From Escherichia phage JP4, in the sequence record PQ330092: a stretch of DNA of 64,000 nt; one strand, written 5' to 3'. Both the position numbers and the translations under genes were made by a program. Shown in pieces: positions 60,318 to 60,408 of this stretch (positions are counted from its first letter, which is position 1; each line of letters opens with the position of its first letter). Below the pieces are notes generated by a model, which worked only from the letters and a program-made list of their open reading frames with translations, was not told the DNA's origin and did no database searches.

Positions 60318-60408
60318 GATTCAGTACTGAATAATAGTACTCCTATATAGAAAGATAGTTCCCCTGGATTGATTCAGTACTGAATAATAGTACTCCTATA
60401 TAGAAAGA
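60318..60408. repeat. tandem direct repeat, 2 x 38 bp
   Basis: gattcagtactgaataatagtactcctatatagaaaga at 60318-60355 and 60371-60408. Confidence 0.65.

Follow-up and report, generated by a model that had tools for sequence, protein, structure and literature searches.

An AGTACT-bearing tandem repeat of variable copy number upstream of an early promoter in the terminal repeat of an Asteriusvirus jumbo phage, and its candidate role as an operator array

The window (the whole stretch of DNA analysed, 64,000 nucleotides of record PQ330092 from Escherichia phage JP4) was found to belong to Asteriusvirus, the PBECO4/121Q-like jumbo myoviruses of E. coli with a genome of about 350 kb. Several isolates were 95-97.5% identical to the window over 59000-62000, and the records of several relatives were found to begin 209 bases before position 59000. 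The first bases of the vB_Ec-M-J record, in which bases 1-21525 are annotated as a direct terminal repeat, were aligned at position 58792, which marks the left physical end. The termini and the 20,993-bp terminal repeat of fEgEco12 were verified by PhageTerm plus restriction digests (PMC13070987). The left direct terminal repeat was of about 21 kb, and the tandem repeat was found 1525-1617 bp inside it, counted from the left end. No credible gene was found in the 1.73-kb leader between the left end and the first start codon. The features of the locus were as follows.

58792-60522, no strand: gene-free leader from the left end to the first start codon, with 9.8 AGTACT per kb
60316-60355, plus strand: repeat copy 1 (distal), 40 nt, TTGATTCAGTACTGAATAATAGTACTCCTATATAGAAAGA, from the sequence and a repeat search
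60320-60331, no strand: perfect 12-bp palindrome TTCAGTACTGAA of copy 1, with its AGTACT core at 60323-60328
60336-60341, no strand: second AGTACT of copy 1, in the context TAGTACTC, alternating with AGTTCC in relatives
60356-60368, plus strand: spacer of 13 nt, TAGTTCCCCTGGA, resembling the right arm of the early-gene 5' hairpin
60369-60408, plus strand: repeat copy 2 (promoter-proximal), identical to copy 1
60373-60384, no strand: perfect 12-bp palindrome TTCAGTACTGAA of copy 2, with its AGTACT core at 60376-60381, 64 bp before the -35
60389-60394, no strand: second AGTACT of copy 2, 51 bp before the -35
60405-60439, plus strand: A/T-rich, UP-element-like conserved stretch in which the -35 module recurs as degenerate repeats of 12-13 nt (AAAACTATTTTA / AAAGTATTTGTAG / AAAGTAC...; TRF 60408-60442)
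60435-60467, plus strand: early promoter P1, sigma-70-type, with -35 TTGCAC at 60440-60445 and -10 TATAAT at 60462-60467
60480-60499, plus strand: 5'-leader hairpin GAGCGGGAAC/ACTTCCCGCT of the early-gene cassette
60523-60885, plus strand: the gene that opens the terminal repeat, encoding 120 aa and assigned to phrog_7352, a family without assigned function, with ATG at 60523 and the stop at 60885

The first-pass annotation had described an exact 38-bp direct repeat with two AGTACT sites per copy and a gap of 15 bp, and had named a miscounted spacing or a non-identical second copy as grounds for rejecting it. The sequence GATTCAGTACTGAATAATAGTACTCCTATATAGAAAGA was found at 60318-60355 and again at 60371-60408 with 0 mismatches and a 15-bp gap, and the AGTACT sites were found to start at 60323 and 60336 in copy 1 and at 60376 and 60389 in copy 2, so that the description was borne out in each of these respects. 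The search for further copies that it had proposed yielded no third 38-mer anywhere in the 64 kb, even with 3 mismatches allowed, shuffled sequences predicting 0 matches. The identity was found to reach 2 nt (TT) beyond the 38-mer on the left, which gives head-to-tail exact copies of 40 nt with a period of 53 bp, as in a variable-number tandem repeat (VNTR); copy 1 (40 nt) and the 13-nt spacer together make up a unit of 53 nt. An exact 38-nt duplication against 0 matches expected in shuffles places the repeat far beyond chance. The duplication is no assembly artefact, since about 19 genomes, each assembled independently, contained two 100% matches to the 53-nt query in every terminal-repeat copy. 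Rfam covariance models gave 0 matches at E<=1 in 58000-64000, and the single-strand DNA fold of 60300-60425 contained only trivial pairing between the two palindromic copies (z = -2.4). One site with the IHF consensus was found in the leader at 59699, far from the tandem repeat.

The end of copy 2 was found 31 bp before the -35 of P1. The AGTACT sites of the repeat were located 117, 104, 64 and 51 bp before this -35, followed by a further AGTACT fused to the -35 itself (AGTAC-TTGCAC, at -5) and by a GTACTG in the P1 spacer at 60447-60452. The repeat had been placed just upstream of the first early-type promoter, at 60440; it does adjoin P1, but a perfect-consensus promoter of the same family was found further left at 59157-59184, and P1 is the first early-type promoter that precedes a gene rather than the first of its type. 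The first gene was followed by a run of tiny genes, each behind a cassette of promoter, hairpin and ribosome-binding region. Over 60430-63700 the early promoter, the 5' hairpin (GCGGGAA-N3-TTCCCGC) and the ribosome-binding cassette were found to be repeated before each small gene, and this early-gene cassette was about 77% identical to the cassettes of Phapecoctavirus and related phages, which have no AGTACT by the -35.

The leader to the left of the tandem repeat was found to contain several further elements. The promoter at 59157-59184, on the plus strand and about 370 bp in from the genome end, reads TTGACA-16-TATAAT, and its spacer contains an AGTACT. No ORF was found downstream of it, but a hairpin with a CAGTACTG site on either side follows at 59314-59347; the promoter may serve a non-coding transcript. 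At 59369-59388, which is 578-597 bp in from the left physical end, two back-to-back Chi sites were found to form a hairpin palindrome, CCACCAGC-ACAA-GCTGGTGG, against 0.19 Chi sites expected per strand in 64 kb. Of 10 Asteriusvirus loci, 7 contained the pair, its loop reading either ACAA or the inverse TTGT, and so did Klebsiella phage fENko-Kae01 of a different genus (484-503 from its end). The pair could attenuate RecBCD entering at the genome end. An array of 8-bp periodicity (CTGGATGG / CTAGACGG / CTAAACGG...) was found at 59538-59700, about 750-900 bp from the left end, and a similar array was found at 700-805 from the left end in Pectobacterium phage CBB, which makes it a terminal element conserved between genera. 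The leader of fENko-Kae01 (about 700-790 and 1027-1046) contained sequences judged by eye to be Fur-box-like, namely GAATGATTATCATTTC and tandem AGAATAGTTCTCAAATGAGAATA, in the place where Asteriusvirus and CBB carry the 8-bp array.

An element of about 54 nt with a GCACCCGGTGGG core was found in three copies, at 59872-59925, 60087-60140 and 63555-63608, with a minus-strand promoter reading into each. The promoters near 59940 and 63632 belonged to the AGTACT-spacer type, and the third (60163) was a plain TTGACT-16-TATAAT. The elements were flanked by TTCAGTACTGA sites, and homologous GCACCCTGTGGG elements were found in the leaders of CBB and fENko-Kae01. They look like small minus-strand RNAs, and the Rfam search of 58000-64000 gave no match to them. 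Two TCAGTACTGA palindromes were also found at 58722 and 58772, in unique sequence 20-70 bp left of the terminal-repeat boundary at 58792.

The 53-nt unit was found only in Asteriusvirus (36 records), at this locus alone, and was present 1, 2 or 3 times per terminal-repeat copy. The commonest state was two units, the 53-nt query being 100% identical in about 19 genomes, and copy 2 was the one kept in single-copy relatives. The range of 1-3 units across the 36 Asteriusvirus records and four metagenome contigs is the variable copy number of a VNTR, and the number of units would serve as a practical strain-typing marker for Asteriusvirus isolates. The locus was read in detail in 10 Asteriusvirus genomes and in the four contigs, which came from a metagenome scan and showed the same architecture; a scan of IMG/VR with the P1-proximal 38-mer returned 121Q itself as the sole match. 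The locus contained a well-conserved left flank, TTAGAATGCGTCTGAGGCCG..., and a well-conserved right flank, ...AAACTATTTTAAAAGTATTTGTAGAAAGTACTTGCA, enclosing a shuffled interior of four modules: (GATT/GGTTG)CAGTACTGAAT(A/G)AT, a 13-nt sub-unit AGTACTGAATRAT in up to three copies, AGT(A/T)C(T/C)CC-TATATAGAAAGA, and TAGTTCCCCTGGAT. Among relatives the units recurred with a period of 52-53, 66 or 79 bp and are thus not kept in helical phase.

In every unit examined (10 genomes and 4 metagenome contigs) the palindrome CAGTACTG was present and CAGTACTGAA was the invariant stretch, whereas the -10-like and 3' parts were variable. An AGTACT 64 and/or 51 bp before the P1 -35 was found in 10 of 10 genomes, with one site shifted to 61 bp, and the second AGTACT of the unit was frequently AGTTCC in relatives and is thus dispensable. 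The units were found to be colinear with the spacer, the -10 and the leader of genuine AGTACT-spacer promoters, with A for T at -12 and with no -35. Since the -10-like hexamer decays while the palindrome is kept, the unit is a derivative of a promoter cassette that has retained the palindrome and not the promoter.

In PBECO4, SD-1_S14, phAPEC6 and others, the matches to the 381-nt query 60150-60530 fell into two pieces that together span about 820-895 bp of the record, an arrangement suggestive of a further duplication or an insertion near P1. Between the upstream anchor and the P1 -10, the PBECO4 locus was found to have 213 nt that agree with the window in length and sequence, so the extra length lies outside that stretch.

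The hexamer AGTACT was found 233 times in the 64-kb window against 21.6 expected from dinucleotide-preserving shuffles, an excess of 10.7-fold, which extrapolates to about 1,000 or more sites per genome and corresponds to about one per 275 bp over the whole genome. It was by far the most over-represented palindrome of the window and the top palindrome in six phage genera. The first-pass annotation had singled out the AGTACT sites of the repeat; the sites are there, but the word is not special to the repeat, being about 10-fold over-represented throughout the genome. The hexamer was strict, its one-mismatch variants reaching at most 2.7-fold, with a weak preference for flanking C...G (CAGTACTG 52 times against 0.65 expected), and 39% of all GTAC tetramers had A and T as flanks. 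The spacing of the sites was near random (CV 0.98). Much of the excess of CCACCA-type words had a separate source, a simple (ACC)n / CCACCA-rich repeat at 46852-47026 inside a minus-strand gene; Chi enrichment was rejected as their general cause, as the window contained only 7 Chi sites.

The coding DNA contained 3.3 AGTACT per kb, in all three frames. In synonymous-choice tests, AGT-ACT was the codon pair used for 80 of 167 Ser-Thr dipeptides (25.8 expected); the context xxA-GTA-CTn, for Val-Leu, was found 47 times (9.7 expected), and xAG-TAC-Txx, for Tyr, 38 times (5.6 expected). The dipeptides Ser-Thr and Val-Leu were themselves in excess, while the reversed Thr-Ser and Leu-Val were much nearer to expectation. 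AGTACT thus has the marks of a HIP1-like word, with a many-fold excess genome-wide and a presence in all coding frames that shapes both codon and dipeptide use.

Over the leader and the first genes, 71-97% of the AGTACT sites were intact in relatives against 43-87% of all hexamers: 93% against 66% in 121Q, 92% against 55% in A4, and 71% against 43% in EJP2. An enrichment of 6.4-7.3-fold was found in genome samples of RaK2, GAP32, CBB, Munch and fHe-Yen9-04, the hosts of which are Klebsiella, Cronobacter, Pectobacterium, Salmonella and Yersinia, respectively. No enrichment was found in Pseudomonas phage PA5oct (0 sites against 4 expected) or in the coliphage ESCO13 of Phapecoctavirus (3 against 9). 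Being seen across the Rak2-like genera and absent in PA5oct and in a coliphage, the enrichment is a property of the clade and not of the host. The enterobacterial Rak2-like clade keeps AGTACT at 6-11 times chance by selection on the DNA itself. A literature search returned nothing that links AGTACT, CAGTACTG or ScaI to these phages, and as far as the literature searched shows, such an excess across six genera of virulent jumbo phages is undescribed.

At the promoters, AGTACT was found in two fixed registers. In the early promoters of the terminal repeat it was fused to the -35 (AAAGTAC-TTGCAA), and in a second group it was placed one base before the -10 (TTGACA-N9-AGTACT-G-TATAAT); both registers were fixed, amid unrelated spacer sequences. 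Both were present in fENko-Kae01, and CBB contained the -35-fused form. The homologous cassette of Phapecoctavirus contained the same hairpin and ribosome-binding region with a plain TTGACA and no AGTACT, so that the word appears as a clade-specific overlay and not as part of the basic promoter. All 6 occurrences of the extended palindrome TTCAGTACTGAA in the window were confined to 59853-63531, where the terminal repeat begins, and two of them fall in the tandem repeat. Five of the six lie between genes, and the remaining one (61810) lies within the 3' end of a small ORF at 61660-61890. In the 23 kb of the fEgEco12 terminal repeat, this locus was the only place where a 130-bp window contained at least 4 AGTACT sites. 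In CBB, no AGTACT other than the -35-fused one was found within 200 bp upstream of the first early promoter.

The tandem repeat may be an array of binding sites, or an auxiliary operator, for a putative AGTACT-specific factor, a reading held tentatively and at somewhat less than even confidence. It would be a copy-number-variable tandem duplication, with a period of 53 bp, of a control module upstream of P1, and the conserved functional content of each unit would be the palindrome CAGTACTG, extended to TTCAGTACTGAA as the strong form of AGTACT. We infer that the word would be recognised by a sequence-specific dimeric DNA-binding factor, most likely encoded by the phage. A protein bound at an AGTACT that abuts the -35 (AGTAC-TTGCAA) or the -10 (AGTACT-N-TATAAT) would exclude RNA polymerase, and the array upstream of P1 would act as a set of auxiliary operators or as a loading pad that raises local occupancy. 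The array would thereby help to modulate, and probably to shut off, transcription from the genome end, the direction of regulation being suggested by the positions of AGTACT next to the promoter hexamers, which point to repression such as an early shut-off. The anatomy, the variability, the genome-wide excess, the conservation and the fixed registers are observed, and the inference concerns the existence of a binding protein and the direction in which it would act.

As in an operator array, each copy was found to contain a dyad-symmetric site (TTCAGTACTGAA), and the sites adjoin or overlap a promoter. The operator or enhancer that had been proposed from the first reading is partly supported, and is the best supported of the readings without being proven: the palindromes and promoter-adjacent sites agree with it, but no cognate protein was found, the copies number 1-3 and the phasing is loose. 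Two further observations, the dispensable second site and the missing upstream cluster in CBB, also count against it. The recombination site that had been proposed beside it found no specific support, as the variation in copy number indicates slippage or unequal exchange and not a dedicated site. The Pfam and PHROGs scans, which covered the first 8 genes of the terminal repeat, 113 ORFs from the window and the genes around the sigma factor, detected no DNA-binding regulator other than a sigma-70-like factor, and no HTH or methyltransferase. They yielded only RCC1 repeats, the sigma-70-like factor, DenV and a STAND/AAA ATPase. The sigma-70-like factor (regions 3 and 4) was located at 11600-12226 on the plus strand, and about ten tandem paralogues with RCC1-like beta-propeller repeats at 39385-53652 on the minus strand; the window also contained a DenV-type pyrimidine-dimer glycosylase and the STAND/AAA ATPase (34583-35350).

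The same anatomy could have arisen without any function. The repeat would then be a neutral, variable fossil, patched together from pieces of the many early promoter and 5'-leader cassettes (an AGTACT-spacer whose -10 is defective, one hairpin arm, the right, and what is left of a Shine-Dalgarno region), with AGTACT inherited from its parents and the block resized by slippage or unequal exchange within a gene-free leader. This main rival is a real possibility, though one that stays clearly short of probable. The colinearity of the units with the -10 and leader of AGTACT-spacer promoters, including the A at -12 and the absent -35, agrees with such an origin, and the 3' part CCTATATAGAAAGA was found to resemble ATAGTTCCCCACTATATAAGAGGA, which in the next cassette forms the hairpin arm and the ribosome-binding region. 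The block was the main indel hotspot between the two well-conserved flanks, varying in the 13-nt sub-unit AGTACTGAATRAT as well as in its 1-3 copies, and both CBB and fENko-Kae01 were found to carry similar TATATAGAGAAGG-like remnants ahead of the first promoter, at distances that vary from 35 to 57 bp. A fossil is harder to reconcile with the retention of CAGTACTG in every unit examined while the promoter-like parts decay, and with the conservation of the leader AGTACT sites well above background. At least two upstream sites were also found in every genome, the two-copy form was identical in about 19 genomes, and the block was the densest AGTACT cluster of the whole terminal repeat. It is very improbable that each unit is still a weak promoter without a -35 (CAGTACTG-AATAAT), the array forming tandem starts that feed the first gene or recruit RNA polymerase. 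Over its first 20 nt the unit is nearly identical to the perfect promoter at 59157-59184 in the region of its spacer and -10 (TTCAGTACTGTATAAT against TTCAGTACTGAATAAT), but no promoter was predicted on either strand in 60316-60408, neither a -35 at 16-18 bp nor a correctly placed TG was present, and in relatives the -10-like hexamer was found to be further degraded (GATGAT, AAGATA, AATAGT) with the palindrome kept.

A strict hexamer spread near-randomly in coding DNA is more like the site of an enzyme than like a classical operator, which counts against the operator reading, and AGTACT may therefore serve a function unrelated to transcription. A DNA-modifying or DNA-cutting enzyme (a methyltransferase, a nickase or similar) could act on the word, with the repeat as a dense patch of substrate and with P1 affected through the state of modification, for example in the incoming genome as against replicated DNA. 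The strict hexamer with weak flank preferences is typical of restriction-modification-type recognition, and the near-random distribution through coding DNA agrees with it. The closest analogue, cyanobacterial HIP1, embeds methyltransferase target sites (PMC6604393), and RaK2 encodes two putative DNA methyltransferases and has DNA that resists many restriction enzymes (PMC3622015). However, no methyltransferase is mentioned in the CBB genome paper, and ten restriction enzymes cut fEgEco12 DNA as predicted, which argues against global hypermodification (PMC13070987). The concentration of the 12-bp palindrome in non-coding DNA near promoters and the fixed registers also fit a binding protein better, and an enzyme target is considered unlikely. 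The nearness to the genome end would allow the repeats to be the iterons of a replication origin or a packaging or end-recognition signal, since direct repeats adjoin an A/T-rich stretch 1.5 kb from the physical end. This was judged scarcely credible: the leader at 58792-60522 contained no DnaA box (TTWTNCACA), the neighbouring genes were without known domains, and the cut site is 1.5 kb away from the repeat. Copy number and spacing were not conserved, and the leader element conserved between genera was instead the 8-bp-periodic array at 59538-59700, also present in CBB.

The binding-site array could be part of a wider arrangement, in which AGTACT, with TTCAGTACTGAA as its strong form, would be the recognition word of a sequence-specific system shared by all enterobacterial Rak2-like jumbo phages. 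A phage protein would read the sites as a 'self' mark and would also gate early promoters, and its strongest array in nature would be the tandem repeat, in control of the first transcription unit at the genome end with the first promoters. This broader proposal is doubtful. Short palindromes are usually avoided by phages, being targets of restriction. Here a ScaI-type palindrome is maintained by very large virulent phages at 6-11 times chance, at a cost in the choice of codons and even of dipeptides, which implies a strong function at the level of the DNA. As the densest natural grouping of strong-form sites, and lying beside a promoter, the repeat is an obvious handle for finding the reader of AGTACT, as a source of probes for pull-down and EMSA (TTCAGTACTGAA, with TTCAGATCTGAA as its mutated counterpart) and as the object of a test of early transcription.

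Among known systems, the SlmA-binding sequence of E. coli, GTGAGTACTCAC, contains a central AGTACT with dyad symmetry, and SlmA requires G1, T2, A4 and G5 with a purine at position 3 (PMC3020112). Host SlmA was rejected as the reader, as 0 sites in the 64 kb matched GTRAGYRCTYAC and GAGTACTC occurred once. It is excluded on specificity, the phage sites favouring C at position 3, where G is depleted, and having no preference for G1.

The nearest analogue of AGTACT is, by its pattern of occurrence, the HIP1 palindrome of cyanobacteria, GCGATCGC, another short palindrome that is conserved in a clade far above chance genome-wide, coding DNA included, with an unsettled function (PMC6604393). The phage word is a hexamer and HIP1 an octamer, and it is found in virulent jumbo phages of Enterobacterales whereas HIP1 is found in a cellular lineage. 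AGTACT also contains no Dam or Dcm-type site and is placed at fixed promoter registers.

Operator arrays of the lac O3, gal OE and lambda OL/OR type share with the locus the repeated dyad sites upstream and a site overlapping the promoter core, represented at P1 by the AGTACT fused to the -35 and the GTACTG in the spacer. They differ in that the copy number and phasing of the phage repeat vary between strains and no repressor is known for it. To our knowledge, no classical operator has a core word as frequent as about one per 275 bp over a whole genome.

The pre-early region of T5 and the A1-A3 promoter cluster of T7 are left-end early regions of phages with terminal repeats. They resemble the present locus in a long terminal repeat full of very small early genes behind strong host-type promoters, and in a repeat-rich non-coding leader at the end that bears the first promoters. 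There is no sequence similarity, the AGTACT word being specific to the Rak2-like phages and the repeat unit to Asteriusvirus.

As an object, the tandem repeat is of an ordinary kind, a variable repeat upstream of a promoter, and it shares with an ordinary VNTR the head-to-tail copies, which are identical in any one genome and differ in number from strain to strain. It differs from an ordinary VNTR in that its unit is built round a palindrome that is under genome-wide selection and is invariant in every unit.
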